From an uncultured Cytophagales bacterium (GTDB lineage Bacteria; Bacteroidota; Bacteroidia; Cytophagales; Bernardetiaceae), in assembly GCA_964537755.1 (NCBI GenBank), contig CAZIAQ010000002.1, positions 43,567 through 107,566 on the forward strand: 64,000 nucleotides of DNA, in the 5' to 3' direction. Below the pieces are notes generated by a model that worked only from the letters and a program-made list of their open reading frames with translations, was not told where the DNA came from and did not search any database. Each line of letters begins with the position of its first letter. Within the stretch, counting starts at the first letter, position 1. Shown piece after piece: positions 8,733 through 57,337 of the stretch. The translations under genes and the position numbers were made by a program.

Positions 8733-8771
8733 AATTTCAAAAAATAATCCGTTTCAGCAATTTTTGGATCG

Positions 8772-9626
8772 CTAATCCTGAAGCAGGTAGGGTATCTCGT
8801 TTTGTTGGACGTAGTACAGCACCAGTGCCACCGCTAGGGCAAAGAAAAACAAAGTTGAGAAAATCAGGATCATAAACAAAGCCTTCAAGCCCGCCCACAC
8901 ACGATAACGAGGAGCAAAAAACTGGATGTATGCCCAGATGCTGTGTCCCATGTAAAGCACAAAATAGACCTGCGAAACGAAGGTAAAATGAAGCCAGCCC
9001 AGCAACGCAAACGGTAGCAGTAGCACATAAAACCACAACGTATGACCAATCAGATAGCAGTTGAGGACAAAGTGCATGGCGTAGTTGTAAGCATGACGAT
9101 AAAAAAACAGCCGCGTAAAGACACTCAAAATGGGTATGGACAAGAGCATAATCAGCGAAAAATACTGATTAAAGGTCAAGGTGATGAGCTGGACGGCCAT
9201 CTCTCTAAACTTAGCAGATTCCAGGGCAAGCTGCTGCATTTTTTCTTTTTCTCTCCCCTGGGCTGCCTCCAGTTCCTTTTCGAACTCAACAGACACGGGG
9301 GATTGGGAAAAATCAAATATCTCATCGTAAGGGATAAAAAGATGAATAAAAGCCGCAATGGCACTCACGAGCAGCAAGTATTTGATCGGATTGAAATAGC
9401 GTTTGCGGTGGCCGGCGATATAGGCTCGGATGGCGTGTCCCGGGCGCAGGGTCAGTTGTAAGAAGGTATGCGGAATGCCCCGATCAAGGTTGATTAAGTG
9501 GGTGATCTCGTAGGCCAGATAGCGCATTCCGATAGGCTGCACACGGCGGCTTTGTCCGCACTGATGGCAGTAGCGGCCTGCCAGTGGCGTATCGCAGTTT
9601 AGGCAATGCGTAGGTGTATCCGGCAT
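8772..9626 (-). CDS. DUF3667-family membrane protein with N-terminal zinc ribbon
   Basis: N-terminus CLNCDTPLAGRYCHQCGQ followed by several TM helices. Confidence 0.5.
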   Translation of the reverse strand: MPDTPTHCLNCDTPLAGRYCHQCGQSRRVQPIGMRYLAYEITHLINLDRGIPHTFLQLTLRPGHAIRAYIAGHRKRYFNPIKYLLLVSAIAAFIHLFIPYDEIFDFSQSPVSVEFEKELEAAQGREKEKMQQLALESAKFREMAVQLITLTFNQYFSLIMLLSIPILSVFTRLFFYRHAYNYAMHFVLNCYLIGHTLWFYVLLLPFALLGWLHFTFVSQVYFVLYMGHSIWAYIQFFAPRYRVWAGLKALFMILIFSTLFFFALAVALVLYYVQQNEIPYLLQD

Positions 9627-11925: not shown

Positions 11926-14900
11926 ATGGGCGAATTAAGAAACGTGTTTATTTCTTACGGACGTCGGGAAAGCAAAGCCTTTGCCAAGCGGTTGTACGAG
12001 CGATTGTGTCCGGGAGGGTATCAGGTTTGGTTCGATCAAAATGACATTCCCTTAGCTGTTGATTTTCAGGATGAGATAGATCAAGGTATCGCTCAAGCCG
12101 ATAACTTCATCTATATCATCGCCCCGCATTCGGTCAATTCTCCCTACTGCGCCAAGGAGATAGAACTAGCCCTACGCCTCCAAAAGCGGATCATCCCGAT
12201 TTTGCACATCGAAGGTTTTGGACAGGAGGTCTGGCAGGAACGCTATCCCGAAGGCAGCCAAGACGACTGGATCGCCTTTCAGGCAACGGGACGGCATAGT
12301 AGCTTTCAGGAGATGCACCCCGAAATTGGCAAGCGCAACTGGGTCTATATGCGAGAGCAGTGCTTGCCCGGAACCGATACTTACCCGCCCATCGACGATT
12401 TCGATCAAGCCTTTGAGGGATTGGTAGCCGTCCTGGACAAACACAAAGACTACGTCCGGCAACATACCCAACTCTTGCAGCAGACCCTTGATTGGGAACG
12501 CCAACAAAAACAAAGTGCGCTCCTCCTGGTAGGGCAAGAACGCCAGGCGGCAGAAGCCTGGATCCTCCGCGACTTTAGCCCCGAGCAACCTCCTGTTTTG
12601 CCCACCGACCTGCACGCGCTCTACATCAGCGAAGCCCGAAAGAACGCCGAAAACCGAATGACCGATGTCTTCCTGACTTGCTCCATGGAAGACCGACGCA
12701 TCCGAGATCGACTCATCCTGGCCCTGGCCCGGCATTGCATCACCACCTGGACACCCGACCGAGACATCGCCCCAGGGCAAACGATGCAGGAAGCCATCCG
12801 AGAGGGCATCGAAAAGGCCGACAACCTCCTCTTTTTCATCGACCCCCACACCCTACAAAATCCCCAGTGCATCGACGAACTCAACTACGCCCGCAGCCTC
12901 AATAAGCGCATCATTCCCATCAAGATTGCCCAACCCAACCAGGAAATCCCCCAAAGCATCCGATACCTCAACTGCATCGACTTCACCGATAACACCGAAG
13001 AGATACACTTTGACGATGACTTCTACCAACTCCTCCAACAACTCCAACACGAGAAAAGCTACCACGAGCGACACAAAATGCTCCTCGTTCAGGCCATCAA
13101 ATGGCAAAACCAAAGCCAAAACCCCAGCATCCTCCTCCGAGGGCATAACCTCCAACGCGCCCAAGCCTGGCTCAAACTCGGCATCCAGCGCAAAACTTAC
13201 CCACCCAACCCACTCCACCAGCAGTTCATTGAGGAAAGTGCCGCCCAAACGGGCAACCTACAAAACATAGACATCTTCATTTCCTACTCCCGCACCGATA
13301 GCGACTTTGCCCGACAGCTCAACGAACGCCTACAAGCCAGCGGAAAAACCACCTGGTTCGATCAAGAAAACATCGAAGAGGGGGTAGCCGACTTCGGCCA
13401 AGAAATCCGAAAAGGTATTGAGCAGTCCGATAACTTCCTCTTTATCATCTCCCCAGATGCCATCGCCTCACCTTATTGCCAGGACGAAACCGAATACGCC
13501 CGCAGTCTCGGCAAACGCATCCTGACCATCCGTTGGCGGCCCCTACATGAGCAGCAACAACTCCCTCCCGCCCTGGCAACCATCCAATGGATCACGCTCC
13601 AGAATGGCTTCGATGCCATGTTCAATCTCCTGATCCGTGCCTTAGAAGTCGATCGTGCCTACGTCATGGCACACAACCGATGGCAGCGCAAAGCCCTCGA
13701 GTGGAGCGGAGGCAACATCACGCTCACCCCCGAGACACCCACCAACGACAGCCTACTCTTGCGCGGCGAAGAACTCAACAACGCCGAAGCCTGGCTCAAG
13801 GAAAGCACCCAAAAGCAGCCCCCCCCTACGACGCTCCAGCAGCAACTCATCCAGGAAAGCCTCCAGGAGAGCCAACGCGACCACAAACGGAGGCAACGCC
13901 TACTCGATCTTAGTATCTTTACCTTTGCTGTTATCATCGCGGGAGGTGTCCTGGCGGTTGTCCAATGGGTAACGGCACTACAAAGCGGCAGCCGGCTAGC
14001 AGCTTATGACCTGATATTCAAGGCAGAGACCATCCTATCCGATGATCCCGAACACGCCCTTCAGCTCGCCAAGACGGCTTATGAAGTCGAAGAAAAAAAA
14101 CATCCCCGCATCTTGAAAGCCTTTTTTGAGATGAGCCAGACGTACCTACAAATCACCCAGGAGGTCAATCAAACCCTGGTTAATCACTTGCCCCACCAGC
14201 ATCCCGTCCTCAACGTGTATCTCGATAACAGCTACGAGCAAAGCCGCTTGCTCACCCGAGATGCCAGCGGTGGTTTGCACCTCTGGAGCCACACCGGAAA
14301 CTATATCCGCACCCTTGTTACACCGCGTCCGCGTCCTTTTTTTAGCCTTGCTGGCAAGAGTACCATTGAGCAGCTTAACATCTTGTATAGCCACCACGTC
14401 AAGGGAGAAGTGCTAGCTGCCGTCTATGAAGACCAGTACGTAATCGCGTACCAGCCCGGCAAGCAACAAATTACCCTTTGGGATGGCAATGGATTACTGA
14501 TTTTTGAAAAGAAAGTAGCGCAAGGTGTCCTACGGGTCGGCTTTGCTTCATCCCTCGATCAAGAATTACAAGTTTTTTGGATAGTCTCCAATTCTCAAGA
14601 CCCCGATGCCGACACCCAAATCTTCTTCGCTGACCGCTCGGGGCAAGTGATCTATGAAGAAAAAGCCTATGAGTCCGTACAGACCGATACGCTCTTCTCA
14701 ACGGCTAGTTATGAACGCAACTCCACGGAAGGTTTGAAAGCCAGTTTTCGTGCCGATGGAAAAAGTATCGACTTGACTTACCCCTGGGAAGATAAAGAGG
14801 AAGTACCAGAAGAGCGGTTTGAGATGTTGGGGCTGCCCGATTTTTGGGGCAATCGTATGCTGCTCCTGGGGCAGGATGGTCTTTTGATCTGGACACCCTA

Positions 14901-16056
14901 CTATTACTTCGCCGATCGCCTAAAAGACATCGCGCCTTTGGATGCCTCCGAAAAAGTGGCTTATGATATTGCCAGCTTAGAGGAATCCTTTCAGGTACCA
15001 GCCGAAGCCGCGTATCAGTTGGCGAAATTGAGTTTGTTTTTGTTGTTTTTTTACTTGTCGGTCATTGCCCTGACGCTACTATACCGGTTGTTTTTGGGGC
15101 GTGAGTATTTGCGTATTGTCGTGTATGCGATCTCGGCTTTGGTGATTGTGGTGTGCTGGAGCCAGTTTTTGGTGTACCGAGACTTCTTTGCGTCTTTGCC
15201 CTTTGCCTACGGTTTATTTTTGTCGGGGGGGATGGGCTATTACTTGTATAGGTCTGCTGATATAGATGCGTTCAAGCGGCTTTTTGGCTGGATAGCGATG
15301 GTGATGCTGGTAGCGGTATCCCTGCTGGGGTTGTACTTTACCTATCCCGAATATAGCTCTCCCTCCGCCCAGACGGTACGTAGGCAGGTGCTTTCGTTGA
15401 TTCTTTTTTTGGGTTTGGCGAAGGTGAGTATTTTTGCGGTGGCATTTTATGGACTTCAACGATTTTACAACAAAAAATACAATCACCTAGCCGATTGGTG
15501 TACGAGCTGGCTGTTTGTGTTGAGTGTTTTTCTGACGGCGGCTTACTTTTATGGCCCAAGTAATGTCCAGGAAAAAGACACCATTCTGGCTGTTTTCTTC
15601 CTGGCCTGGATGCCGCTCTTGTACGTCTTTCGGCTCAATGCGCATCAGTTTGTGCTGGCTCGCCTGGATGGTCGCCGCTCGAGTCGTCGGCTGCTGCGGT
15701 TTTCTACCTGGGGTTTTGTGGGGGTGTTGGTGCTATTGACGGGTGGGTTATTTGTGGATGGGCTAGTTTTTCTTTCACTCTTTTGGTTTGGCTTGTATCT
15801 CTTGATCCTCTACGTGGCTAGTTTTGTGATCGCGATTGTCCAAAAAGACAGGTTTAGTTTGTGGGGCAATATTGGCTCCTCTATTGGCATCTTTGTCCTG
15901 GTTATGCTTTGGGGAACGGAGGCATTGGATCGAAACCAGTTAATTAGGGTGTTTCCGTGGTTGCTCTTGGGGGTGGCAGGGCTTGGTTTGGGTATTTGGC
16001 AGTACAACAAATATCGCCGCAACATCTTGGCCCAACGCGCTGTTGTGGAGGCATGA
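11926..16056 (+). CDS. Membrane protein with three tandem N-terminal TIR domains, a single TM anchor, a 340-aa middle domain and a C-terminal region of about 10 TM helices
   Basis: Three copies of the TIR hallmark: (V/I)F(I/L)SY.R.D...FA..L start, then YCAKEIEL / QCIDELNY / YCQDETEY. Each TIR is followed by an LLRG..L..A..WL helical module. TM segment LSIFTFAVIIAGGVLAVV, then a polytopic C-terminus. Confidence 0.8.
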   Translation: MGELRNVFISYGRRESKAFAKRLYERLCPGGYQVWFDQNDIPLAVDFQDEIDQGIAQADNFIYIIAPHSVNSPYCAKEIELALRLQKRIIPILHIEGFGQEVWQERYPEGSQDDWIAFQATGRHSSFQEMHPEIGKRNWVYMREQCLPGTDTYPPIDDFDQAFEGLVAVLDKHKDYVRQHTQLLQQTLDWERQQKQSALLLVGQERQAAEAWILRDFSPEQPPVLPTDLHALYISEARKNAENRMTDVFLTCSMEDRRIRDRLILALARHCITTWTPDRDIAPGQTMQEAIREGIEKADNLLFFIDPHTLQNPQCIDELNYARSLNKRIIPIKIAQPNQEIPQSIRYLNCIDFTDNTEEIHFDDDFYQLLQQLQHEKSYHERHKMLLVQAIKWQNQSQNPSILLRGHNLQRAQAWLKLGIQRKTYPPNPLHQQFIEESAAQTGNLQNIDIFISYSRTDSDFARQLNERLQASGKTTWFDQENIEEGVADFGQEIRKGIEQSDNFLFIISPDAIASPYCQDETEYARSLGKRILTIRWRPLHEQQQLPPALATIQWITLQNGFDAMFNLLIRALEVDRAYVMAHNRWQRKALEWSGGNITLTPETPTNDSLLLRGEELNNAEAWLKESTQKQPPPTTLQQQLIQESLQESQRDHKRRQRLLDLSIFTFAVIIAGGVLAVVQWVTALQSGSRLAAYDLIFKAETILSDDPEHALQLAKTAYEVEEKKHPRILKAFFEMSQTYLQITQEVNQTLVNHLPHQHPVLNVYLDNSYEQSRLLTRDASGGLHLWSHTGNYIRTLVTPRPRPFFSLAGKSTIEQLNILYSHHVKGEVLAAVYEDQYVIAYQPGKQQITLWDGNGLLIFEKKVAQGVLRVGFASSLDQELQVFWIVSNSQDPDADTQIFFADRSGQVIYEEKAYESVQTDTLFSTASYERNSTEGLKASFRADGKSIDLTYPWEDKEEVPEERFEMLGLPDFWGNRMLLLGQDGLLIWTPYYYFADRLKDIAPLDASEKVAYDIASLEESFQVPAEAAYQLAKLSLFLLFFYLSVIALTLLYRLFLGREYLRIVVYAISALVIVVCWSQFLVYRDFFASLPFAYGLFLSGGMGYYLYRSADIDAFKRLFGWIAMVMLVAVSLLGLYFTYPEYSSPSAQTVRRQVLSLILFLGLAKVSIFAVAFYGLQRFYNKKYNHLADWCTSWLFVLSVFLTAAYFYGPSNVQEKDTILAVFFLAWMPLLYVFRLNAHQFVLARLDGRRSSRRLLRFSTWGFVGVLVLLTGGLFVDGLVFLSLFWFGLYLLILYVASFVIAIVQKDRFSLWGNIGSSIGIFVLVMLWGTEALDRNQLIRVFPWLLLGVAGLGLGIWQYNKYRRNILAQRAVVEA

Positions 16057-17087
16057 TGCGTTATACGAACGAGTTTTTGGATACCCAACGCCAGGCAACC
16101 GACCCCCAGGCGGAGGCACTGGTACGCGCTGCTCTGGCACAAGACCCCAAGGGGTTTTGGCGGTTTCTCACGGATTGGGAAAGCGAAAGCATCCCGGAGG
16201 CTTTTACCGATCTGGTAACCGAACACTGCCCTGGTTATGCTGCCCCCCCTGCGGGGATGAGTGCGGAGGAGATCGCCCAAAGTGAGCTTTTTTTTGAGCA
16301 ATATTCGGAGGCGATTTTTTTGCTGCTCGGGGCATATTCCTTGCCTTACTGCTATGCCGCCGAAGCGGGTGTGCAGGTCTTGTACCAAACCCAACGCCTG
16401 AGCAAAGAACCCCTCAAACGCCTACAAGAGACTGGACTTTTTGTCTTCAATATCCTGGAAACCAATAGCTTATCCAACGGCAAAGCCTGGCTCTCCATCC
16501 TACGGGTGCGCCTCATGCACGCTGCCGTGCGCGTGAAGGTTTGGGAAAGCGGCCGCTGGGATACCGCCCGTTGGGGACAGCCCATCAACCAGGAAGACTT
16601 AGCCGGAACGCTCTTTGCCTTTTCGCTGATCGTAATTTTGGGGCTACGCAAGCTAGGCTACCGCATTTCAGCACAAGAGGCCATGGTGTATTTCAGGCGT
16701 TGGCACCTGATCGGAGAACGCCTCGGCGTAGCCCCCGAGATGCGCCCCGATGCACCTACGGCGGCCTTTGCCCTGGCCAAACGCATCGAAAAGCGCCACC
16801 TGCGTCCCTCACAGGCGGGCAAATCGCTCAACGATGCCCTGATTCACGAAACGGAGAAATCCACCGAGGGACAGCTCCCCCGAGGCTTTGTCCCGGCCCT
16901 GATGCGCTATCTACTCGGGCAGCCTATCGCCCGCTGCCTGGGCTTACCCGAAAGCGGTTGGGCTGACCCCCTGATCCAACTCAACCTACTGCGGCAGCGG
17001 CATTTGGTCTTGCCTACGCGCCCTACGCCTACGGAGGTGCATACCACCTACCGCGCCACCAAAGCACGGCTTTTGGCGATTGCTTAG
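16053..17087 (+). CDS. MpaB/DUF2236-family putative oxygenase
   Basis: ATGA overlap with the stop of the TIR gene. Start MMRYTNEF. RVRLMHAAVR motif typical of the DUF2236/MpaB/Lcp family. Confidence 0.5.
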   Translation: MMRYTNEFLDTQRQATDPQAEALVRAALAQDPKGFWRFLTDWESESIPEAFTDLVTEHCPGYAAPPAGMSAEEIAQSELFFEQYSEAIFLLLGAYSLPYCYAAEAGVQVLYQTQRLSKEPLKRLQETGLFVFNILETNSLSNGKAWLSILRVRLMHAAVRVKVWESGRWDTARWGQPINQEDLAGTLFAFSLIVILGLRKLGYRISAQEAMVYFRRWHLIGERLGVAPEMRPDAPTAAFALAKRIEKRHLRPSQAGKSLNDALIHETEKSTEGQLPRGFVPALMRYLLGQPIARCLGLPESGWADPLIQLNLLRQRHLVLPTRPTPTEVHTTYRATKARLLAIA

Positions 17088-33576: not shown

Positions 33577-36500
33577 ATGGCACTTGGAGACAACCTCAAC
33601 AAAGATAGTCTGATCCCGCAGGAGAGCCACGCCACCGGCAACGAATGCCAGCAGCTCAAAGCCGCCTTGCACGCCCTTGTGCCTAGCCTCGAGCTAGATA
33701 TGCAAGGACAAATCCTGACCGCCAACGCCCCTTTTGTCCGTTGGCTGGGATTTACCGCCGACGAACTCAAAGGCAAGTCCGAACGCGCCCTACACACCGA
33801 AGCCTTCCGCCAAAACGGACGACACGCCAACGTGTGGGAATCGCTCCGAGGCGGAAAACCCTTTTCGGGAAACTTTGAGTTGATCGACAAAGAAGGACGC
33901 ACCATCACGGCCCAGATCGCCTATACCCCTCTGCTGGATGCCTCGGATCGCCCCTACAAAATCCTCCAACTGATCCAGCCCCTCCAAGACCAGCCCAGCA
34001 TCTCGTCGGACAGCCAGGAAGAGATCGAAAACCAAAAGACCCTCATCCATACCGTGCCAGGGGTCTTGTATCGCTTCGTGGCCCGGCACACGAGCGAGTA
34101 TCTCTTTCGCTACCTTAGCCCGCAGATGGCAGATATTTACGGCGTTCCAGCCGAGGAAGCCCTACAGGATTTCTCCAAAGTGCTGGCGGTGATTCATCCC
34201 GACGACCTACCCGGCGTACAGGCAGCTATCACAGAGGCCGTAGCCAAGCAAGGCTTCTTCGATTATGAGTACCGCATCTTTGTCAAAGACAAAATTCGTT
34301 GGATACGCGCCCAATCACGGGTCGAATACGTAAACGCCGATGAGGTAGAGTTTGTCGGAATTTTTAGGGACGTAACGATCCGCAAAACCGCCCAACTCAA
34401 AGCCGAAACCAACGAGGCAGCCTTCCAGCGCGTCCTGGATACCGTCCCGGGGGTGATCTACCGAGCCAAGCTCAACGCCCAAGGGCTGCCCTATTTCACC
34501 TATCTAAGCCCCTATGCTGAGCAGGTGTTTGGCTATACACCCGCAGAGGTGATGACCAACCCCGAGATGTACTGGAGCTTGATTTATCAGGATGACAAAT
34601 CTGATTTTGAAGCCAAAATGCGCCAATCCATCGCCCAACGAAGTGGCGTAGCGATGGAGTTTCGGATCACGAAGAAAAACGGCGATGTGATCTGGGTCAA
34701 GCTAGACTCCAGCGTCGATCAGGCATCGGAGGAGTACGAGTCTTACGGTATCATCCGAGATGTTACGCCGCGCATCCAAGCCCAGCAGGCGCTCAAAGCC
34801 CAGCAGCAAGATAGCCAGGAGTTGATCGCTACCGTTCCCGGGATCATCTATCGCTTTGAAGTATCCGACGAAGGAACTTCACGGATTACGTTCATCAGCG
34901 AGCAGGTACGGGAGGTCTATGAAGTCGAACCCGAAGCCGCCCTCCAAGATGCCAACACCATGTTTGGCTTGGTTTATCCCGAAGACCTACCCTTGATCCA
35001 GGAGCGGATCACACATTCGATCCAAACCAAGGCACTTTACGACGTAGAGTTCAGGATAAAGACCGCCCAAACACAAACCGAAAAATGGATTCGGGTACAA
35101 TCCAGGGTTGTGCGTCAGCAGGATGGCATCACGGAGTTTGTGGGCTTCCTGCGGGATGTGAGTACACGCCGCCGGATCCAGAACCGCGTAGCAGAAAGCG
35201 AAGAACGCTTCAACCTAGCCTTGCAGGGCAGCAACGACGGCGTATGGGATTGGAACATGCGCACGAACGATATTTTCTTCTCCGATCGCTGGAAAGCCAT
35301 GTTGGGCTATGCCCCGCAAGATATTGCAGATAACTTCGCGCAGTTTCAGGCTTTGGTGCATCCAGAGGACTTCCCCCAGGTAGAAAACGCCCTCAATGGC
35401 TACCTTGCCGGACAGTTGCCCGAGTACGATGTCTCGTTCAGGATGCAACACCAGGACGGCAGCTACCGCTGGATTCGGGCGCGTGGCAAAGCCCTATTCG
35501 ATCCGACGGGCAAGCCCTACCGCATGGCTGGTTCTCACTCCGACATCACCGACATCCGCAACAAACAAATCGCCCTTGAGGAGGCAACGGCTTACCAACG
35601 CGCCGTCCTTGAAAGCGCGGGCTTTGCCGTCGTCTCTACCGATGCCGATGGGGTCATTAACATTTTCAATGAAGCCGCCGAGCGCGACCTGGGCTATACC
35701 GCCGAGGAGATGATCGGTAAGCAAACGCCTGCCTTGATCCATGACCCCGAGGAGGTCGTTGCCCGTACCCACGAACTCAACCAGGAGATGGGACTTGATC
35801 TAAGCCCTGGATTCGAGACCTTTGTTTATCGCACCCGCACGACGGGAAAACCAGACATCCGCGAGTGGCATTACGTCCGCAAAGACGGCAGCAAATACCC
35901 CATCGTGCTTTCGGTAACCGCCGTCCGCAATGCCGCTGGAGAAGTTCTGGGCTACCTCGATATCAGCGAAGACATCAGCGAGCGCAAAGCCAAAGAAAAT
36001 GCCCTCCGCGAAAGCGAGCAACGCTTCAACACCTTCTTTGACCAGTCGATTGACTTGCTCTGTATTGCTGGCTTCGATGGCTACTTCAAGTTCTTGAACC
36101 AAAACTGGATGAACCTCCTGGGCTACACCAAGGACGAACTCAAAGCCCAGCCCTTCATTGAATTTGTTCACCCAGACGACGTAGCCGCTACCCTCCAGGA
36201 GGCCGGCAAACTCGCCGATGGGGCGACGGTTATCTCCTTCGAGAACCGCTACCGCAAAAAAGACGGTAGTTATGTGTGGCTCCAATGGAACTCGGCTCCC
36301 GTCTATGAAAAAGAACTCATCTACGCCAACGTCCGCGACATCACGGAAGAAAAAGCCCGCGAAATCCGCTTCAATCGGCAGAATGACATCCTAAACCGTC
36401 TGCCCATCAATAAAGATGTTCAAGCAGGTAACCGAGACGAAGCCATTCGGGTAATCCTGAGGTCGGTTGCCGAAGGGGTACATGTCGAACGGGCAAGTTT

Positions 36501-39500
36501 TTGGCACTACAACGCCGATCAAAGTTTCATTACGTGTCAGCAACTCTACCAACGCAGCCAACAGCAGTTCTCCAACGACCCTTTGGTGCTGCATCAAAAA
36601 GATTTCCCGTCTTATTTTGCAGCCTTGAAGCGGGGTACGCTTATCGTAGCATCAGAGGCACAAACAGACCCCGACACGCGGGAGTTCACCGAAGGCTACT
36701 TTAAGCCGAATCAAATACAATCTTTGCTCGATGTGCCGGTGCGCTTCAAAGGGGAGATCATGGGTGTTTTGTGCATCGAACACGTAGGATCAACAGCCTA
36801 TCACTGGACAAGCGATGACCAAAAGTTTCTTCGTGCCATACCGGAGATCATCACCTCCGTCATGGAAGCCGAAGAACGCCAACGTCTCGAAGCCGAAATT
36901 CGAGCCAATGCTGCCTTCAACCGCAAACTCTTTGAGGTCTCCAACTACGGGCTGCTCGTCCTTGAAGGGGGGAGTTTTACCAGTGCCAATGCCGCTGCCA
37001 TCGCACTCTTTGGCGGAGAAAAGGCCACAGAGCAAGACATCATCGGCAAAACACCCATCGACTTCTCCCCGACTACCCAACCCGACGGCAGCGACAGTGA
37101 AGCCACCCCCCTGAGGCACATCCAACGCGCCATCGACGAAGGCAGTACACTCTTTGAGTGGCAGCACCTACGAACGGACGGCACGCTATGGGATGCCGAG
37201 ATCAGCCTTATCAGTTTTGACCTGAACGAACGCACCCTGATTCGGGTCTCGATGCGCGATATTACCGAAGAAAAAGCCGCCCGAGAGAAGATCAAAGCCC
37301 AGCAAAAAGAACTCGATGATTACGTCTCGGCCATCAATACCTCCACGATACGTATTGACTTCGATGCCCAACGCCGCGTCATCACGATCAATGACAACTT
37401 TGCCGAGCTGTTTGGCTACACCGAAACCGAAGTTCTGGGCAAAACCCATGACTTCTATGTGGCTAAGGATCAAATCCGAGAGGGTAAATACGATCAGTTA
37501 TGGGACGAGATTGGCAGAGGTGTTTCTTTTGTTCGAGATGCCAAGCGGCTCTCCAAAGCAGGAAAAGAAGTTTGGCTACGGGCTAGTTATATCCCGATAC
37601 TCAATCAGCAGGGGCATCTCGAGCGCGTTACCTGTCTCTGCAACGACATCACCGAACAAAAACAATTTGAACTCGAAGCCAGCCGCCTCCAAGGCGAACT
37701 CGAAGCCCGAATGAAGATCATCGACAAGGTGGCTCTGGTTACTGAAACGGACATCTACGGAACGATCACTTTTGCCAACGAAAAGTTTACGGAGGTCTCC
37801 GGCTACACCAACACCGAAGCCGTAGGCAAACCCCATAACATTGTCCGCCATCCCGATAACCCCAAAGGCATCTACAAGGAGATGTGGGATACGATCAAGG
37901 CCGGTAAGCTCTTCCAAAAGACCATCAGAAACCGCCGCAAAGACGGTACAGATTACTGGGTCGATGCCTCCATTGCCCCCATCCTGAACGAAAAAGGTGA
38001 GATTGTCAAGTATCTGGGCTTCCGTATCGACATCACCGCACAAAAACAACGAGAACTGGAGCTACAACGCCTCCAAAACGAACTCGAGGTACGTCTGAAG
38101 GTCATCAGCAAGGTGGCTCTTCTGAGTGAATCCGACTTGCAAGGGCGCATCACGTATGCCAACGATAAGTTTTGTGAAGTCGCCCAATACACCGAAGCCG
38201 AACTCATCGGTAAGCCGCATAGCATCATCCGCCATCCCGAGACACCCAAAACCATCTTCAAAGAGATGTGGGAAACCATCCAGGCAGGAAACATCTTCCA
38301 GGGAACCTACCGCAACCGCGCCAAAGATGGACGCACCTATTGGGTCGATGCTACGATTGCCCCCGTCCGAGACGAAAACGGCGACATCTACAAGTATCTC
38401 GGCTTCCGCATCGACATCACGGATCGCATCGAACAAACCGCCCGCATAGAAGCCCAAAACTTTGCCATCGGCAAATCCAACGGTACAATCGAACTCTCAC
38501 CCGAAGGGCAAATCCTGGACGCAAACAAAACCTACCTTGACTTTGTGGGCTACACCCGAGATGAACTGATCGGCAAGCACCATAGCTTCCTTTGCAAGCC
38601 CGAGGAGGTCGCCTCACCGAGCTACAAAGAAATGTGGCAAACCCTTCGAGAGGGAAAGACCCTCTTTGGCGACTACCGAAGGATCACGAAGGATAAGCGA
38701 GAGGTTTTCATCCAGGAATCGTTTAGCCCGATCTATGACCAAAGCGGCAACCTGTCCAGCATCCTGACCCTTGCCGTCGATGTAACCCAGCGCAAGCGAC
38801 GCAACGCCGAAAACCGAGGCAAACTTGAGGGGATCAATAGCACCAACATCGTCATAGAGTACGACTTTGAAGGCCGGCTCCTGACCGCCAACGAAAACTT
38901 CCTCCAAACCAGCGGCTATACCCTCGAAGAGGTCATCGGCAAGCCTCACAGTTTCTTCTGCGATCAAAACCACATCAACAGCAGCACCTACCAAGACCTC
39001 TGGAAAAAACTCCGACAAGGAGAAGCCGTTTTTGATACCTACCCCCGTATCGGCAAGGCCGGACAACGCATCTGGCTCGAGGGTAGCTACACCCCCATCA
39101 CGGATGACGACGGACGACTGCTCAAGATCGTCAAGTTTGCTCAGGATGCCACCGAACGCCGCACCCGTAACGCCGAAAACCGAGGCAAGCTCCAGGGCAT
39201 CAACCGGACTAACCTCGTCGTGGAGTTTGATCGAGAGGGGGTTGTCATCTCGGCCAATAACCGATTCCTGGAAGCGATGGGGTACCAGCGTGAGGAATTC
39301 ATCGGGAAGGCACATGCCATGTTCTGTGATGAAGTCTATCGCAACAGCCGCGAGTACCGCGAGTTCTGGGATGACCTCCGCAGTGGTAAGGCACTCTTTG
39401 GGACATACCCGCGCCTAAACAAAGCAGGCAAGCGCATCTGGCTCGAAGGCAACTACACCCCGATCACGGACGGTGAAGGCAACTTCTTGAAAGTTGTCAA

Positions 39501-40881
39501 GTACGCCCGAAACGTAACCGACCTTCGGCAGTCTTCCATGGCTTTGAGCAACTTCGTAGATGCCCTCTCCCAGGGTAACTTCGATGCCGAAATCCAACTC
39601 GAAGGCGTAAGCATTGAAGGAGACATCGGGAAGATGATCGGCAACGCCATCAACCTCCGCGATAACCTCCGAAGCATTATCACCGAAATCAAGCGCGTCG
39701 TGGAGGCTGCTGGTAAGGAGGGTAAGCTCGACGAACGCCTCAACATCGAAGGCGCAAGGGGTTCCTGGAAACTCTTAGCTGACTCGGTAAACGAACTGCT
39801 CCGCTCCATCTCCGAACCCATCCTGGACATCAAGCGGGTCATCCAGTCGCTCTCCGAAGGAGACCTAACGACCTCCTTCAACTACGCCGCCACCGGGCAG
39901 CTTCAAGCCATGGGACAGGCGATGAACAACGCCATCCAGAGCCTGAACGTGATCCTGAAAGACCTCGAAAGCAGTGCCGTTACGTTAGGGCAATCCTCTC
40001 ACCTACTCGAGCAGCGATTTGAGGGCATGGAAAAAGATGCCCAAAGCGTCGTCAAGACCATCGTCAATATCAACGACGGGATGCACCAGCAGGTACAACA
40101 AACCGATCAGGCAACCCAACTCGTCGAGAAGGTCATCAAGAGTGCCGACGAAACAGGACAGCAGGCGGGTATCATCCGAGGAGCCGCCGAAAAAGGGATG
40201 CAGCGTTGCGACGACGGGATGAAAATCATCCGACAACTGGTACAAGAGATGAGCCAGATCGACCTGACCGCCAACCGCACCAGCTCTTCCATCAGCACGC
40301 TCTCCGATCGCTCCGATGAAATCTCCCGTGCCTTGAGTGTCATCACCGACATTGCTGCCCAAACCAACCTCCTGGCCCTCAATGCTGCCATCGAAGCAGC
40401 CCGAGCCGGAGATGCCGGACGTGGCTTTGCCGTCGTTGCCGAAGAGATACGAAAGCTAGCCGAGGATTCCCGACGATCCGCTACGGACATCGAGCGGGTC
40501 ATCAAGGATGTATCCAAAGACATCAACACCGCCGCCGATTCTATCAATCGGATGAAAAACAGCGTAGAAAACGGCAACCGAGCCACCAAAGAAGCCCGAG
40601 AGGTCTTTGAGAACATCTCCGATTCTAGCCGCGAAACCCTGGATTTGTCCCGCAGTGTCTCCGAAGCCACCAGCGGTCAAAAGGAGATCATCACGCAGGT
40701 AGCCAGCAACATCCAACGCATCGTGCAGGTCTCTCACCAGACTGCCAAAGGAACAGAGGATGCCACCAAGTCATCCGAAACGCTTCAAAGTTCGGTCGAT
40801 GAGGTTGCCACTGTCAGTAAGGAACTCGCCAAGCTCTCCGGTACGCTCAAAACAGGGGTTAGCCGCTTCAAACTTGTCTAA
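33577..40881 (+). CDS. Giant soluble methyl-accepting chemotaxis protein with about 14 PAS/PAC domains, a GAF domain, HAMP and MCP signalling domain
   Basis: 2434 aa. Many repeats of the PAS/PAC pattern (W..D..R..A..). C-terminal MCP signalling core [34 protein letters not shown]. No obvious N-terminal TM helices. Confidence 0.85.
37669..38410 (+). repeat. Tandem duplicated PAS module pair inside the MCP gene (two units of about 370 nt)
   Basis: Protein blocks [40 protein letters not shown]... and [39 protein letters not shown]... are co-linear and roughly 60-65% identical. Confidence 0.6.
38790..39520 (+). repeat. Second tandem duplicated PAS module pair inside the MCP gene
   Basis: [43 protein letters not shown]... 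versus [43 protein letters not shown]..., co-linear through ...[14 protein letters not shown] / [14 protein letters not shown]. Confidence 0.6.
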
Positions 40882-51949: not shown

Positions 51950-52798
51950 CTATGCCTTTCCCCGAAAGGCAACCCAAAGTTGGACAGCCTCCCGAGCCGC
52001 TTTTACGTCATGGACACGCAAGATATGCGCCCCTTGCTCCAACGCAAGCGTATGCAGGACTGTGCTGCCGTTGAGGGCCTGCTCGGCCGTGATATGGAGC
52101 ATCTTGTAAATCATCGACTTGCGAGAAAGCCCCACCAAAAGAGGACAGCCCAGCAGGTGCAGCTCGGGGAGTTGGCGCAGGAGTTGGAAGTTTTGGGGGA
52201 TATTTTTGGCGAAGCCAAAGCCCGGATCCAGGATCACGTCGGATACGCCCAGGCGACGAAGTTGTACCAGACGAGCCTGTAACTCCTCGATGATGTCCAG
52301 GAGCAAATCCTCGTACTGGTTGAGGGTCATCATCGTTTGGGGTGTCCCACGTAGGTGCATCAGCACATAAGGGACGCGCAGACGGGCTACGGTCTGGAAC
52401 ATCTGCGGGTCTAGGCTACCCCCCGATACGTCGTTTATCAGCACGGCTCCTTCCCCGACGGCTACCTCGGCCACCGAAGCCCGAAAGGTATCCACGGAGA
52501 TATGCGCCTCCGGAAAGGCTTGTACCAATGCCTGTATCGCCTCGCGCACCCGCCGCTGCTCCTCCGCTACGGGTACGGGGCTAGCCCCTGGGCGGGTGGA
52601 GTAGCCTCCTACGTCCAGGAAGTCGGCACCTTCGTTGAGCATCTGCTCGGCACGCCGTAGAAGTGCCTCGGTTTGGGACACTCGGCTGCCAGCAAAAAAA
52701 GAATCGGGGGTAAGGTTGAGAATACCCATCACCTTGGGCCTATCCAGAGACATCAGGGAGCCGCCCAGGCGCAGGCTAAAGGCAGACGGGCTGGTCAT
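51950..52798 (-). CDS. folP: Dihydropteroate synthase
   Basis: Pterin-binding motifs MGILNLTPDSFF and DFLDVGGYSTRPGA. Start overlaps the upstream stop as TGATG. Confidence 0.85.
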   Translation of the reverse strand: MTSPSAFSLRLGGSLMSLDRPKVMGILNLTPDSFFAGSRVSQTEALLRRAEQMLNEGADFLDVGGYSTRPGASPVPVAEEQRRVREAIQALVQAFPEAHISVDTFRASVAEVAVGEGAVLINDVSGGSLDPQMFQTVARLRVPYVLMHLRGTPQTMMTLNQYEDLLLDIIEELQARLVQLRRLGVSDVILDPGFGFAKNIPQNFQLLRQLPELHLLGCPLLVGLSRKSMIYKMLHITAEQALNGSTVLHTLALEQGAHILRVHDVKAAREAVQLWVAFRGKA

Positions 52799-53235
52799 CA
52801 GAAGGGCAGGTCATCCGCGCTGGTGGGCGGGGGCGGAGGCGGGGGCGGGGGTGCGCTGCTTGTTGTTGCGGGCGCGAACGCAGGGCTACTGCTCTCTCCG
52901 GCCGCTGCTTGCAGCGCAAAGACTTTAAGGGAGTTAAACCAACGCATGGGTTCTGACGGCGAGCGTTGCCAACTGCGCCCTTCGATGGCTACGCGGGCCA
53001 GCACCTGGTCGCCTTCCTTGTAGCTATCCAGGAGATCGCATTTGTCCTGGACGAGCTGTAGCAGGATTTCTTGGGGATAACGATCCTCCTCCACGTGCAA
53101 GACAAACTCCCGTTTTTGGAAGCGTTCGGAGACTACCTGCGTATCAAATTTCTTGATGATTTTTCCGGTAATATCAATGGTAGGCATACAGAGAGAATGT
53201 TTTTTTTGAACAAAGGTACAATTTTTTGTGGGCAT
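52798..53235 (-). CDS. DUF3127-family protein with C-terminal polyproline tail
   Basis: Core MPTIDITGKIIKKFDTQVVSERFQKREFVLH resembles DUF3127. Tail APPPPPPPPPTSADDLPF. ATG overlaps the stop of the upstream TIR gene (TGATG). Confidence 0.5.
   Translation of the reverse strand: MPTKNCTFVQKKHSLCMPTIDITGKIIKKFDTQVVSERFQKREFVLHVEEDRYPQEILLQLVQDKCDLLDSYKEGDQVLARVAIEGRSWQRSPSEPMRWFNSLKVFALQAAAGESSSPAFAPATTSSAPPPPPPPPPTSADDLPF
52822..52853. repeat. Imperfect G5C-type hexanucleotide simple repeat encoding the polyproline tract
   Basis: ggtgggcgggggcggaggcgggggcgggggtg; encodes PPPPPPPPP on the minus strand. Confidence 0.6.
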
Positions 53236-55709
53236 CACTCCACGGTAGCTTCCTTAAACTCCTTTTCGATCAACTCGCGCAGGCGTTGCTTGACTGCCGG
53301 ACGAATGACCCCAATGGCAGCCATATCATCGACCGCCCGCTGGAGGTCTTTTTGGGCTTGCTCGAGTTTCTTTCGGAGTTCCTGGAACTTTTCGATCTCG
53401 CGTTGCTCCTGGGCCGAGAGCCTGCTTTTGGCCTGCCGTTCTACCTGTACGCGCTCCCTGACCGCCTGCTGGCGTTGGGAGATGGCGATGCCTGCTTTTT
53501 GGAGGGCGGCTTCGGCATTGGCTCGGGCCGTTTCTACTTCGATTAGGGCATTTTGGAGGCTGATTTCGGCTTCGAGAGATTTCTGGAGGGCGCGTTCGGT
53601 CTCTTCGGTTTTGAGGCGGGCTAGCTTTTCGGCTTCTTCGGCTATGGCTAGGGCGGCACTGGCCTCCGTGGTACGCTTGTAGGCAATGCTGCCAAAGACA
53701 ATGGCCACCAAAAGGGCTACACTGATGATAACCAGGGAGATGTTCTGCCGTCGGACGCGCTTCTGGGCCTCCCGTACACGGGCGCGTTCGAGGTCGAGGA
53801 GGCGACGCTCCTGGGCTTCCTCCTGCTGGCGCGTCCATTCGATGACCTCTTCGCTTTTGGCAATGAAGGATTCCTGGAGGGGGGTGGGGGCGGGTTTTTT
53901 GTTGCGGCGTTTGGCATCTTCGAGCCACTCCTTGGCAATCGTGAACTCACTGCCGCGCAAGAGAAAGTCTTCATTTTGTCCGTTTTGGCTCCACTGGCGG
54001 GCCTCCTGCTCCCATCGGGTGTGGCTACGGACATGATCGCTGTCGGCATCGAGTTGGCGGATGAGCTGACTGAAAGCGTCGTGGAAGTCCATCTTGTCGC
54101 GCTCAAAATCAATTTGCGTGGTTTGGCGCAGGCGGTCAGGCATCTGCCAGGGTGGTACTTCGTCGTAAATCAGGGTGATGATGCGCTTGCCCAGGGTTTG
54201 GGCGTGGGCGAGTTCGGCTTGGGTGTCGGTGTTTTCGACGGATTTTTTGGAGAGGATAAAAACGACGTTATCGGATTCGAGGATAGCCTGCTCTACCTCC
54301 TGACGGAAGCCCTCGGAGGAGTTGGTGTTGATGGTTTCTTGATCGAACCAGGTGTTTTTGCCGTGGATTTGTAGTTCTTCGTTGAGCCGTCGGACAAAAT
54401 CGCCTTCGTTGGAGGCATAGCAAAGAAAAACATCGGTGCGGATTTGTCCTGTCTTGAGGAGGCTTTCCTGGATGAAATCTCGGTGGAGTTGGGTGGGCTT
54501 ATGGTCGGCTCTGCGTTCGCCGATGTCGAGCCAGGCTTGGGCTTCTTGGAGGGATTGCCCCTGGAGCAAGATGCTATCGTTGCGGTTTTGTTGTTCCCAC
54601 TTGAGGGCGCGGGCTAGGAGTATTTTGTGTTGGTGGTAGTAGGTTTGGTCTTTTCTGATTTCCTGGATCAGGTCTCGGATGTCGATCTGGAAATGCTCTT
54701 CGTTTTCGTTGTCCGTGAAATCGACGCGCTTGAGGGAGCGCACCGAGCGGGGGATTTGGTAATCGTCCACAAACTCCACGAGCAGGGGGATGATACGCTT
54801 TTGGTTCTTGATCGCTGTTTTGAGTTCTTTGAGGCACTCGACAGAAACGACGGACTCGGTGGAAAGAAAAAAGATGAAGTTATCCGAATGCAGGATACCC
54901 GTCTTGGCGGCATCGCGGGCGCGTTGTCCGGTTTTGATGTCGGCTTCTGTCCAGGTCGTGATGCTTTTGCGGTGCAGGGCGGCCGTGATCTGCTCCCGTA
55001 GCCGGCGGTCGGCGGGCGGGGAGGAGATAAAGACATCGGCCATGAGGTTTTCGGCGTTCTTTCGGGATTCGCAGATGTACTCGCATTGTAGGTCGGTGGG
55101 TAGGCAGGGGGTTTGCTCTTTGCGAAAATCCGTCAGGAGCCATTTGAGGGCTTGTTCACGGTCGTCTCCGGCAAGTAAAAACTGGGGGCGACGTTGGTTT
55201 TGGTTCCAGCGGATGGCTTCATTGAGGATATAGGTATGCCAGGCGACGTACTCCTGGTTGCTCTGGAGAACAGCTTTGAGTGCATCAAATGCTCTGGCAA
55301 AGTCGTCGATGTCCTCCCACTGTTCAAGGGGAAGATTGGGATCATACTGCTGCCTAAAGTACAGCCAGTTGAGCTTCGAGATCGTGGGGTGCATCTGATC
55401 CCAGTCTTCTTTTTGCTGGGGTTCGATGTGCAAAATCGGGATGATGCGCTTACCCAGCCGGATGGCTTGCAGAATTTCTTTGAGGCAATAAACAGAGCGT
55501 AGGGCGTGCGGGGCGATGATAAAGATGAAGTTGTGGGCCTCCTGAATGCCCTGGTCGATTTGGGTCTGGAAATCTACCGCCAGCGGGATGTCATTCTGAT
55601 CGAACCACACGGCATAATCCTCTGCCCTTAGCCAGTCGTGGATTTTGGTAGCGAAGGCTTTGCTTTCCGCGCGACCATAGGAGATAAAAACATCTTTGAA
55701 ATCCGACAT
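53235..55709 (-). CDS. Membrane-anchored protein with three tandem TIR domains and a C-terminal coiled coil (paralog of 11926-16056)
   Basis: N-terminus VFISYGRAESKAFATKI...VWFDQNDIPLAVDFQ...YCLKEILQ is nearly co-linear with the other TIR gene. Second and third TIRs follow (ECLKELKT, TQAELAHA). Then a TM segment ISLVIISVALLVAIVFG and an Ala/Glu/Gln-rich coiled coil. Confidence 0.8.
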   Translation of the reverse strand: MSDFKDVFISYGRAESKAFATKIHDWLRAEDYAVWFDQNDIPLAVDFQTQIDQGIQEAHNFIFIIAPHALRSVYCLKEILQAIRLGKRIIPILHIEPQQKEDWDQMHPTISKLNWLYFRQQYDPNLPLEQWEDIDDFARAFDALKAVLQSNQEYVAWHTYILNEAIRWNQNQRRPQFLLAGDDREQALKWLLTDFRKEQTPCLPTDLQCEYICESRKNAENLMADVFISSPPADRRLREQITAALHRKSITTWTEADIKTGQRARDAAKTGILHSDNFIFFLSTESVVSVECLKELKTAIKNQKRIIPLLVEFVDDYQIPRSVRSLKRVDFTDNENEEHFQIDIRDLIQEIRKDQTYYHQHKILLARALKWEQQNRNDSILLQGQSLQEAQAWLDIGERRADHKPTQLHRDFIQESLLKTGQIRTDVFLCYASNEGDFVRRLNEELQIHGKNTWFDQETINTNSSEGFRQEVEQAILESDNVVFILSKKSVENTDTQAELAHAQTLGKRIITLIYDEVPPWQMPDRLRQTTQIDFERDKMDFHDAFSQLIRQLDADSDHVRSHTRWEQEARQWSQNGQNEDFLLRGSEFTIAKEWLEDAKRRNKKPAPTPLQESFIAKSEEVIEWTRQQEEAQERRLLDLERARVREAQKRVRRQNISLVIISVALLVAIVFGSIAYKRTTEASAALAIAEEAEKLARLKTEETERALQKSLEAEISLQNALIEVETARANAEAALQKAGIAISQRQQAVRERVQVERQAKSRLSAQEQREIEKFQELRKKLEQAQKDLQRAVDDMAAIGVIRPAVKQRLRELIEKEFKEATVE

Positions 55710-55816
55710 AAAGCCTTACTTTTGTCTGAAGATCAAAATTATTAAATTTTTTTGAATTTACGCCACGATCATTTTTCTTTGTCTGCTTCAACAAAAAAAT
55801 AGAGACGGCCCACTTT

Positions 55817-57337
55817 TTGTTTTTTACATTCGTTATGTTACCATCCGCACATCCGATGCACCCCCTGCTGCTGCGCTTCCGTGAGCCTGATACGGAGGAG
55901 CAGTACGCTTGGTTTGCACTGCCCTCCGACCTACGGATGCTCCGCACGGCGGCACTTTTGGGGGCGATCATTTACGGGTCTTTTGCCGGGCTAGATTTTT
56001 TTCTGCACGCCAACGACTTTGCTGCCCTGGCATGGGTGCGCCTGGCTGTCGTTGCACCGTTTTTGTTGGGCGTTTGGGCCTGGACTTACCTCCAAAAGAA
56101 CGCGACACCGAAGGTCTTGCAGTGGGTAGCTTTTTCGAGCCTGTTGGTAGCGGCGGCGGGCAACTTCATCTTAGCCAATATTGCCGAGTTGGCGCATTTT
56201 TATTTGGTCAGCATCACGACCATCGTGTTGTTTTTGGGCTATACCATTACGGGCATCCGCTTTGAGCGGCTGCTTTGGTTTGGCGTGGGGATTCTGGCGG
56301 CTTTTCAGTTTTATGGCTTGCAGGTGATGCACGTGGATTTGCTTGAGCTGGGCTACGAAGACATTATCTTGTTTTGTGTCAATGCCGTAGGTGTGCTGGC
56401 CAGCTATGTCATTGAGCGCAGCCGGCGCTTTCAGTTCCTGGGGCAACTGCTCGTAGAAGAACAAAAAAACGAAATCGAACAACAAAACGAGGAAATCCGC
56501 CAACAAAACGAAGAAATCAACACCCAAAAAGAAGACCTCGAAGAGAAGCATCACCTCCTCGATCAGCGCAACCGACAGGTCATGTCCAGCATCACTTACG
56601 CCAAGCGCATCCAACGCGCCCTCTTGCCCGAACATGCCCGCATAGGAGAACATTTCCCAATGTTTTTTGCTTTTTTTAGACCTAAGGATGTCGTATCGGG
56701 TGATTTTTATTGGTTTGCTGTTCAGAAAAACTACCAATTCCTCGTCCTGGCCGACTGTACCGGGCATGGCGTTCCGGGCGGCTTCATGACCATGATCGGT
56801 AACATGCTCCTCCAACAGATCATCGCCGACAACCACTGCTGGGAAACCGATCAAATCCTACACCAACTCGACCAACGCCTAGCCCAGACACTCCACCGCA
56901 AATCCGTTGATAACAAAAAGGTATCCGATGGGATGGATATGGCCATCTGTCGCGTCGATCAAAGCCAGAGCCGCCTGCAGTTTGCCGGAGCCAGACAGCC
57001 CTTATGGCGCGTGCGCCAAGGGCAAATCGACACCTACAAGGGCGACCGTGTGCCTATCGGGAGCTGGGGCGATAAAGCCAAGCATTTCACGGCACAAGAG
57101 ATTGACATACAGCCCGGGGACACCTTCTACATGACCTCCGACGGTATGCCCGATCAGTTTGGCGGCGGAGCCATTCCCACCAAATACACCGCCAAACGCC
57201 TGCGCCAACTCGTTACAAAAATTGCGGATCAGGAAGCTGCCACTCAGGAAACCATCTTATCCGAGACCTTCGACGACTGGCGCGGCAAAGAAAAGCAACT
57301 CGACGACGTACTCATCCTTGGGTTTAGACCCAGGTAA
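55817..57337 (+). CDS. 7TM-receptor domain fused to PP2C (SpoIIE-type) phosphatase
   Basis: Seven N-terminal TM helices. Coiled coil (QQNEEIRQQNEEI). C-terminal PP2C block AKRIQRALLP...GDFYWF...DCTGHGVPGGFMTMIGN...DGMPDQFGG. Confidence 0.65.
   Translation: MFFTFVMLPSAHPMHPLLLRFREPDTEEQYAWFALPSDLRMLRTAALLGAIIYGSFAGLDFFLHANDFAALAWVRLAVVAPFLLGVWAWTYLQKNATPKVLQWVAFSSLLVAAAGNFILANIAELAHFYLVSITTIVLFLGYTITGIRFERLLWFGVGILAAFQFYGLQVMHVDLLELGYEDIILFCVNAVGVLASYVIERSRRFQFLGQLLVEEQKNEIEQQNEEIRQQNEEINTQKEDLEEKHHLLDQRNRQVMSSITYAKRIQRALLPEHARIGEHFPMFFAFFRPKDVVSGDFYWFAVQKNYQFLVLADCTGHGVPGGFMTMIGNMLLQQIIADNHCWETDQILHQLDQRLAQTLHRKSVDNKKVSDGMDMAICRVDQSQSRLQFAGARQPLWRVRQGQIDTYKGDRVPIGSWGDKAKHFTAQEIDIQPGDTFYMTSDGMPDQFGGGAIPTKYTAKRLRQLVTKIADQEAATQETILSETFDDWRGKEKQLDDVLILGFRPR

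Follow-up and report, generated by a model that had tools for sequence, protein, structure and literature searches.

A predicted membrane protein with three ordered TIR domains in a Bernardetiaceae genome, the family to which it belongs, and its relation to neighbouring genes

TIR domains are central to the immunity of animals, plants and bacteria, and how an assembly of them becomes activated is under active study; what, then, is the role of a bacterial gene which encodes three of them in one chain, followed by a membrane helix? Such a gene is found at 53235..55709 (stop codon included) on the reverse strand of a 64,000-nucleotide (nt) stretch of DNA from an uncultured Cytophagales bacterium of the Bernardetiaceae (assembly GCA_964537755.1, contig CAZIAQ010000002.1, positions 43,567 to 107,566), referred to here as the window. 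An earlier note, made from the letters of the window alone, had drawn attention to this gene on account of a second triple-TIR gene some distance away and of an apparent coupling to a small gene downstream. The 824-amino acid (aa) product belongs to the well-known TIR superfamily; the tandem, ordered array of TIR and linker domains carried on a membrane receptor is unstudied. The reading which we favour, at slightly better than even confidence, is that of an envelope-sensing, single-pass inner-membrane receptor with a TIR array that cleaves NAD+ or produces a signal.

The open reading frame (ORF) is a real gene. A database record entitled 'MAG: TIR domain-containing protein [Bernardetiaceae bacterium]' is 100% identical to its product, the N-terminus of which, MSDFKDVFISYGR, agrees with those of its orthologs. 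A scan for sigma-70 promoters gave no match, as expected for Bacteroidota, and the motif TAnnTTTG, the -7 promoter element known for this phylum, was tried instead; the window holds 47 occurrences where 26.6 would be expected, none of 100 shuffles reached 47, and a box of this type, TAATTTTG, is present at 55734..55741 on the reverse strand, 25 nt upstream of the ATG.

The Pfam profile TIR_2 (PF13676) matches three stretches of the protein with 213.5 bits against a cutoff of 28, which places it within the TIR superfamily. Reading along the reverse strand, TIR module 1 (55335..55697, aa 5-125; Pfam TIR_2 at aa 7-123) is the most conserved of the three and is followed by linker domain 1, a four-helix domain without a named family (55044..55319, aa 131-222); TIR module 2 (54708..55040, aa 224-334), to which Pfam assigns TIR/TIR_2 stretches, is the most divergent TIR of the clade, its FISY motif having been lost in the window clade and FISSPPAD standing in its place, and is followed by linker domain 2 (54444..54707, aa 335-422). 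TIR module 3 (54096..54437, aa 425-538), also detected by Pfam, is the closest to the membrane, and linker domain 3 (53835..54095, aa 539-625) continues into a juxtamembrane helix. A hydropathy scan finds a single transmembrane (TM) helix at 53685..53741 (aa 657-675), beyond which there are 148 aa of coiled coil, consisting of an Ala/Glu/Gln-rich stalk of about 120 residues (53316..53675, aa 679-798) and a conserved C-terminal helix with the motif GVIRPAVKQRL (53238..53315).

A full-length AlphaFold2 model built from 53 relatives (pLDDT 83.4, pTM 0.69) shows a TIR fold followed by four helices, repeated three times, then one continuous helix from aa 610 to 798, through the TM segment, and a final helix at aa 804-823. 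The order of three TIRs and one TM helix read in the earlier note is thus borne out by Pfam and the hydropathy scan, as is its Ala/Glu/Gln-rich coiled-coil end by the composition of the C-terminus and the long modelled helix. Since the stretch KRVRRQN lies just before the TM helix, the N-terminus is predicted to be cytoplasmic; the product would therefore be an inner-membrane protein with some 650 N-terminal residues in the cytoplasm and the coiled-coil stalk outside. If fully helical, the stalk would span about 18 nm, as calculated from its length. Pfam returns only weak, coiled-coil-type noise on it and its identity to one ortholog (L004) is 37%; at the tip beyond it, G800, R803 and V806 are shared by all 11 of 11 orthologs.

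The second triple-TIR gene, at 11926..16056 on the forward strand and 37 kb away, encodes a protein of 1376 aa with the same TIR-linker triad and a TM helix, followed by an outside domain of about 350 aa and a polytopic membrane domain. The two products align at 40% identity across 744 aa (BLASTP, E 1e-170), the whole cytoplasmic region included. The likeness had at first been described for the N-terminal 120 residues; it is real but its extent is far larger, and pairwise alignment, by going well beyond chance and beyond generic TIR motifs, upholds the paralogy proposed at that time. TIR1, at 63% identity, is the most similar region; the remaining five cytoplasmic units are 37-47% identical, and identity falls to 24% in the TM helix, to nil in a short aligned juxtamembrane stretch and to about 10% past the membrane. 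On these alignments the two genes are true paralogs with a shared, ordered TIR triad. The outside domain of the 1376-aa protein (13972..15030, forward strand) has no match in Pfam, and only its last 36 residues align with the Bernardetia counterpart, so that it evolves very fast relative to the TIR array. Between the two paralogs there is an ORF of 2434 aa (33577..40881, forward strand).

Are these two genes an oddity of one genome? A word-indexed search, in which 8,000 candidates were scored, returned 993 relatives, from filamentous cyanobacteria (Symploca, Moorena, Coleofasciculus, Calothrix, Nostoc and others), Cytophagales (Bernardetia, Flexithrix, Flammeovirgaceae), Gemmatimonadota and Thioploca. 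In species-representative genomes, at least 583 stretches which encode family members were located, often several per genome. Family architecture was counted over 249 proteins: TIR and linker domains alternate strictly in 246, there are three of each in 205, and the modules, which are positionally distinct, follow the order 1-2-3 in 196. Larger arrays have arisen mostly by duplication of pairs (1-2-1-2-3, n=18; 1-2-3-2-3, n=5; plus seven-module forms). Two-module expansions are exemplified by P0011, P0012, P0014, P0121 and P0122, and arrays with an odd number of modules (3, 5, 7) are far more frequent than those with an even number, a hint that modules function in pairs. The 824-aa protein conforms to the family pattern in full, with its three TIRs and three linkers in the order 1-2-3, a TM helix after the last linker and a C-terminal domain.

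The linker is a domain peculiar to this family, of about 88 aa and four helices with the signature F..L..H..W..LL.G..A..W..P..L..I; the six copies in the window align with one another. It has no match in Pfam at E<=10 and no relative in the PDB by sequence, and a profile of it searched against 1.84 billion proteins recovers 6,400 cluster representatives at E<=0.001, or 3,177 at E<=1e-10. Family members carry generic annotations alone in the databases examined, and no description of the tandem, ordered TIR-linker-TM architecture or of the linker domain was found in the literature searched (tandem or triple bacterial TIR; TIR-WD40-TM).

Two copies per genome are normal for this family. Symploca sp. 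SIO2E9 has at least four loci (L055, L056, L075 and L083) among the 80 loci kept. Two adjacent members on one Cytophagales contig (CANGYA010000063.1; L041 and L059) show local tandem duplication. The census of copy number and partner genes that the earlier note had proposed thus gave a divided answer: triple-TIR genes are commonly multi-copy, but no partner is conserved family-wide, and the downstream genes of 40 loci, when clustered, fell into lineage-specific groups only. This bears on the suggestion that the two paralogs operate jointly, for instance in hetero-oligomers with one member as sensor and the other as executor. Both architectures do occur together, here and in no fewer than four further genomes of the Bernardetiaceae (OM2101, MNP-M8, Flexibacter sp. 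CG and ERR2094166_bin.133), a co-retention which fits non-redundant roles, and the Bernardetia arrays are 56% identical to each other compared with 47-50% to the architecture-matched counterparts in the window, although the tree behind this comparison is a crude neighbour-joining one of near-star topology. However, the genes are not linked, lying about 186 kb apart in Bernardetia OM2101 as they lie apart in the window, multiple copies are the rule in such families, and both proteins have the same presumed output array, neither resembling a dedicated effector. We regard a paired system as quite unlikely.

What differs between family members is the part beyond the membrane. In nearly all three-module relatives the hydropathy scan places a TM helix at aa 620-700, and the domain which follows is mostly WD40 but may also be a coiled coil (as in the 824-aa protein), a polytopic domain (as in the 1376-aa protein), dCache (P0089), CHASE2 (P0014) or hemopexin/TPR. 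The proposal of a modular family therefore holds, in which the same TIR array, ahead of the TM helix, is combined with a WD40, coiled-coil, polytopic, dCache or CHASE2 domain; the companion claim, that the same TIR triad is joined to different output domains, stands in respect of the variable C-termini but not of their function. As these variable parts are on the predicted far side of the membrane, and include such classical extracytoplasmic sensors as dCache and CHASE2, they read as inputs, and the likely arrangement is one in which the C-terminal domains are the sensors and the TIR array is the output.

Whether that output could be enzymatic was considered from the TIRs themselves. Their best sequence matches in the PDB are the TIR domains of SARM1 (E 2e-6), followed by AbTir. 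The modelled domains are predicted to have the TIR (flavodoxin-like) fold, with Foldseek matches to the TIR of Hydra TRR-2 (TM-score normalised to target length 0.85), SARM1, AbTir, SPARTA, MyD88 and the TIRs of TLRs. In the alignment with SARM1, Glu78 of TIR1 (in KEI) pairs with the Glu of the HKEI motif, the catalytic residue E642 of SARM1, and Tyr11, Arg13 and Asp37 pair with Y568, R570 and D594. These last three are invariant in 53 relatives, E78 of TIR1 and E499 of TIR3 are present in 53 of 53 sequences, and E295 of TIR2 in 52 of 53. By these alignments the 824-aa protein possesses the catalytic-position Glu which is a feature of NAD+-cleaving TIR enzymes. In the 67%-identical ortholog (P0005/L008) the corresponding Glu of TIR2 is a Gln, and the catalytic position of TIR2 may be decaying in the window lineage.

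A second line of evidence comes from the gene neighbourhoods of relatives. At 23 of 46 cyanobacterial loci a gene for SLATT/DUF4231 (PF14015, E 2.7e-30), for an LSDAT_prok SLOG protein (E 2.5e-67) or for a recurrent 218-aa protein is found no more than 4 kb away. Such a gene often shares an operon with the triple-TIR gene, and is often directly downstream of it or overlaps it by 8 nt. All of these genes are absent from the roughly 33 non-cyanobacterial loci. TIR with SLATT is a validated type VII Thoeris system, its signal being cADPR, and several TIR proteins with a SLOG effector make up type III Thoeris (bioRxiv 10.64898/2025.12.03.692087); for SLATT and SLOG proteins, a response to nucleotide-derived signals has been predicted or demonstrated (PMC7159879). 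The cyanobacterial linkage supports a signal-producing or NAD+-cleaving role of the array in the family.

The cyanobacterial loci merit a few observations of their own. A triple-TIR-TM-WD40 gene is accompanied by SLATT at L024, L034, L036, L039, L051, L067, L043, L057, L048, L062, L081, L060, L082 and L053, and by LSDAT SLOG at L082, L053, L032, L047, L028, L079 and L063; the SLATT gene of L024 is fused to a GH19-like domain. The 218-aa gene (L048, 6229..6885; L062, 8172..8828; also L070, L027, L065 and L044) has in Xenococcaceae an 8-nt overlap with the triple-TIR gene at its stop codon and there lies ahead of a SLATT gene. It has no match in Pfam, contains the motif GGDGPGGTGDMV and may be an unrecognised SLOG-like sensor. 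In two Bacteroidota loci (L029 and L033) the next gene after the triple-TIR gene encodes a leucine-rich-repeat protein of 675 aa with a signal-like N-terminus.

Taken together, the three TIR_2 domains, the NAD+-cleaving TIRs (SARM1, AbTir, SPARTA) as their nearest solved relatives and the retained Glu, along with the confident full-length model, the recurring architecture, the sensor C-termini and the SLATT/SLOG linkage in cyanobacteria, are the reasons for favouring a receptor with an active array. The orientation in the membrane, the enzymatic activity, the trigger and the biological role which follow are all proposed. The coiled-coil stalk, with its conserved tip, would probe the periplasm or outer envelope, and would report an envelope or extracellular event through the long continuous helix across the membrane. 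Beneath it would lie, as an ordered cytoplasmic array, three distinct modules, each composed of a TIR and its four-helix linker, and the signal arriving along the helix may change how the TIRs pack, both within a chain and between chains, thereby switching on the cleavage of NAD+. The outcome could be NAD+ depletion or an ADP-ribose-derived signal, leading to a response of the defence or cell-suicide type. The 1376-aa paralog would place the same array beneath a different outside and membrane domain.

Several observations weigh against this reading. The topology is based on the hydropathy scan and flanking charges alone; TIR2 of the window clade is without its FISY motif; and some animal TIRs which have the catalytic Glu showed no NADase activity in vitro (bioRxiv 10.64898/2026.04.20.719644). 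SLATT, SLOG, SIR2 and Macro effectors were not found by tblastn beside either gene or elsewhere in the 64 kb, the neighbours in the window are housekeeping genes (folP, hisG-like, PP2C phosphatase), and orthologs are found in varied housekeeping contexts with no obvious defence islands. The NCBIfam models for Thoeris and retron TIRs score far under their cutoffs (Thoeris_type3_ThcB4, 50.9 bits against 220) and the PADLOC ThsB models match the protein at the level of the domain only. On gene content and model scores alike the Bernardetiaceae copies fall outside Thoeris and are stand-alone.

An alternative is that the array is a non-enzymatic scaffold, its TIRs and linkers serving only as surfaces on which proteins assemble, as in animal TLR/MyD88 signalling; the cytoplasmic proteins which it recruits would then act in the biology of the envelope, of gliding or of filaments. 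The Bernardetiaceae genes are inherited beside housekeeping neighbours without a linked effector, the three positions are specialised with TIR2 degenerating in the window clade, and the TIR folds also match those of MyD88 and the TLRs, all of which would suit a scaffold. However, a scaffold sits poorly with the retention of the catalytic-position Glu in all three TIRs across phyla, with the finding that the top sequence matches are NADase TIRs and with the linkage of half of the cyanobacterial relatives to SLATT/SLOG genes, and we consider it unlikely. A more specific form of the receptor with an active array, which we put forward tentatively and by analogy, is a class of bacterial receptors akin to the Toll-like receptors. 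The trio would be a minimal, pre-assembled and catalytically competent TIR oligomer whose packing is set by an outside probe, a coiled coil here and WD40, Cache or CHASE2 in relatives. The Bernardetiaceae paralogs would then be vertically inherited and serve envelope-damage or cell-cell signalling and suicide of cells within the filament, rather than mobile phage defence.

The small gene downstream of the 824-aa gene remains to be placed. In the sequence, as the earlier note read it, a TGATG at 53233-53237 joins the stop codon of the TIR gene to an ATG, and a second TGATG at 52796-52800 lies at the junction of the DUF3127 gene and folP. From these junctions it was concluded that the TIR gene is translationally coupled to the DUF3127 gene, and the explanation can be extended to a single coupled operon of TIR gene, DUF3127 and folP in which the DUF3127 protein is a dedicated TIR partner. 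The ATG within the first TGATG is, however, probably not the start of the DUF3127 gene. The Pfam match to DUF3127 leaves out the first 22 residues of the long ORF which opens there, beginning at residue 23, and in the closest relative with flanking DNA (L002/L003, 72% identity) the DUF3127 protein starts at MPTVEITGK, 35 nt past the TIR stop codon, with no in-frame extension upstream. For these two reasons the start in the window is most likely the ATG at 53187, 47 nt past the TIR stop, giving a gene at 52798..53187 on the reverse strand with a product of 129 aa (Pfam DUF3127, 83.5 bits against a cutoff of 27); given the 35-nt gap in the 72% relative, an overlap of stop and start codons at this position is not conserved in orthologs. 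Within the spacer, at 53211..53218 on the reverse strand, there is a TAnnTTTG box, TACCTTTG, 24 nt upstream of the conserved start and thus at a distance from its ATG equivalent to that of the TIR gene's own box. With the start displaced and preceded by a putative promoter of its own, the claim of translational coupling is not supported. The second junction stands as described: folP, encoding dihydropteroate synthase (51950..52798, reverse strand; Pfam Pterin_bind, 2.4e-73), has an ATG which shares one base with the DUF3127 stop codon.

Nor does the neighbourhood travel with the TIR gene. By tblastn across the 86 related loci, DUF3127 is matched in L002 and L003 only, and in L002 no folP was located downstream of it; among the window's neighbours only DUF3127 and a SpoIIE phosphatase are conserved, again in L002/L003, and relatives of the Prc-like protease, hisG, nitroreductase-like gene, ORF at 58047, folP and mpaB-like gene were found at none of the 86. 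Downstream of the 67% ortholog (L008) is a convergent, antiporter-like gene, downstream of the Bernardetia orthologs an inositol monophosphatase and downstream of that in L007 MarC, while at L004 the TIR gene is flanked by folK upstream and fhs downstream. The 1376-aa paralog fares no better. An mpaB/Lcp-family oxygenase-like gene (16053..17087, forward strand) overlaps its stop codon through ATGATG, but in Bernardetia it is a 4Fe-4S ferredoxin-like gene that comes after the counterparts, so that the idea of a small coupled partner for each paralog fails on both sides. The TGATG junctions, the recurrence of TIR-DUF3127 adjacency in the 72% relative and the presence of folK and fhs beside another ortholog may all be counted in favour of a coupled operon; with the conserved starts lying well past the stop codon in both genomes, a box in the spacer, DUF3127 absent beside the 67% ortholog and every ortholog more remote than it, and a product resembling a known phage protein family, the explanation is largely refuted and we hold it to be highly improbable.

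That resemblance is to single-stranded DNA-binding proteins (SSBs). Along its full length the DUF3127 protein is matched by PHROG 4932 ('single strand DNA binding protein', E 4.8e-22), and its tail, the polyproline tail of the earlier note, is a flexible, Pro-rich stretch leading to an acidic tip, ADDLPF; the C-terminus is PPPPPPPPPTSADDLPF in the window and AADDNLPF in the ortholog. The SSB of E. coli likewise has a flexible linker and an acidic tip, DDDIPF. The window protein is thus like bacterial and phage SSBs in having a domain, a Pro-rich flexible linker and an acidic tip ending in LPF, and unlike them in that its DUF3127-type domain is shorter; searched by sequence against solved SSB structures it gave no significant match. 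We judge the DUF3127 gene to be an SSB-like neighbour with a promoter of its own, probably independent of the TIR gene and not its partner, which removes a false lead.

Two features of the surroundings may be added. Folate genes flank the TIR gene in two distant lineages, folP in the window and folK with formate-tetrahydrofolate ligase in L004 (4281..4766 and 7551..9218); this could be chance or what is left of an ancestral gene order. Transcribed divergently from the 824-aa gene is a gene for a membrane-associated SpoIIE/PP2C phosphatase (55817..57337, forward strand); the arrangement is also found in the 72% relative, whose phosphatase is 63% identical, and is not traceable beyond it.

The interest of the triple-TIR family is that it is very large, unstudied and mechanistically suggestive, with a private linker found in neither Pfam nor the PDB and with SLATT/SLOG linkage in cyanobacteria. 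Here nature has fused three different TIRs in fixed order, tethered them to a membrane and placed them beneath what would be an outside sensor. If the array is active, Thoeris-like signalling would extend to receptors which sense the cell surface, and the family would provide a compact system in which to study how TIR packing controls catalysis.

It is with the Thoeris systems of types VII and III that comparison is most immediate. The TIRs of the window protein carry the catalytic-position Glu and give weak matches to the ThsB and ThcB4 models, and the SLATT and SLOG genes beside cyanobacterial family members are the gene content of these types; however, the window genes have no adjacent effector and lie in a housekeeping neighbourhood, and the three fused, position-specialised TIRs, with their private linker, membrane anchor and predicted extracytoplasmic domain, are foreign to Thoeris. 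With SARM1 and AbTir the window TIRs share the fold and the aligned Glu, Asp, Tyr and Arg of the active-site region, but the protein is without ARM or SAM regulatory domains and its array is tandem in one chain, not assembled from separate chains. Animal Toll-like receptors share with the predicted layout of the window protein a sensor domain on the outside, a single TM helix and cytoplasmic TIR, yet here the TIRs are N-terminal (a reversed polarity) and three rather than one, and there is no LRR ectodomain; the protein falls outside that group and there is no evidence for common descent of the whole architecture. Lastly, in the conflict systems of multicellular bacteria (Kaur, Burroughs, Iyer and Aravind, eLife 2020, PMC7159879) the tandem TIR-linker-TM architecture is not described, as far as the searched portion of that article goes, and the STAND, vWA-MoxR and GTPase components which it sets out are not present at the window locus. 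The window protein and its relatives nevertheless resemble those systems in their TIR effectors, their WD40 and other repeat sensors and their SLATT partners, and in their enrichment in filamentous cyanobacteria, Cytophagales and Thioploca.

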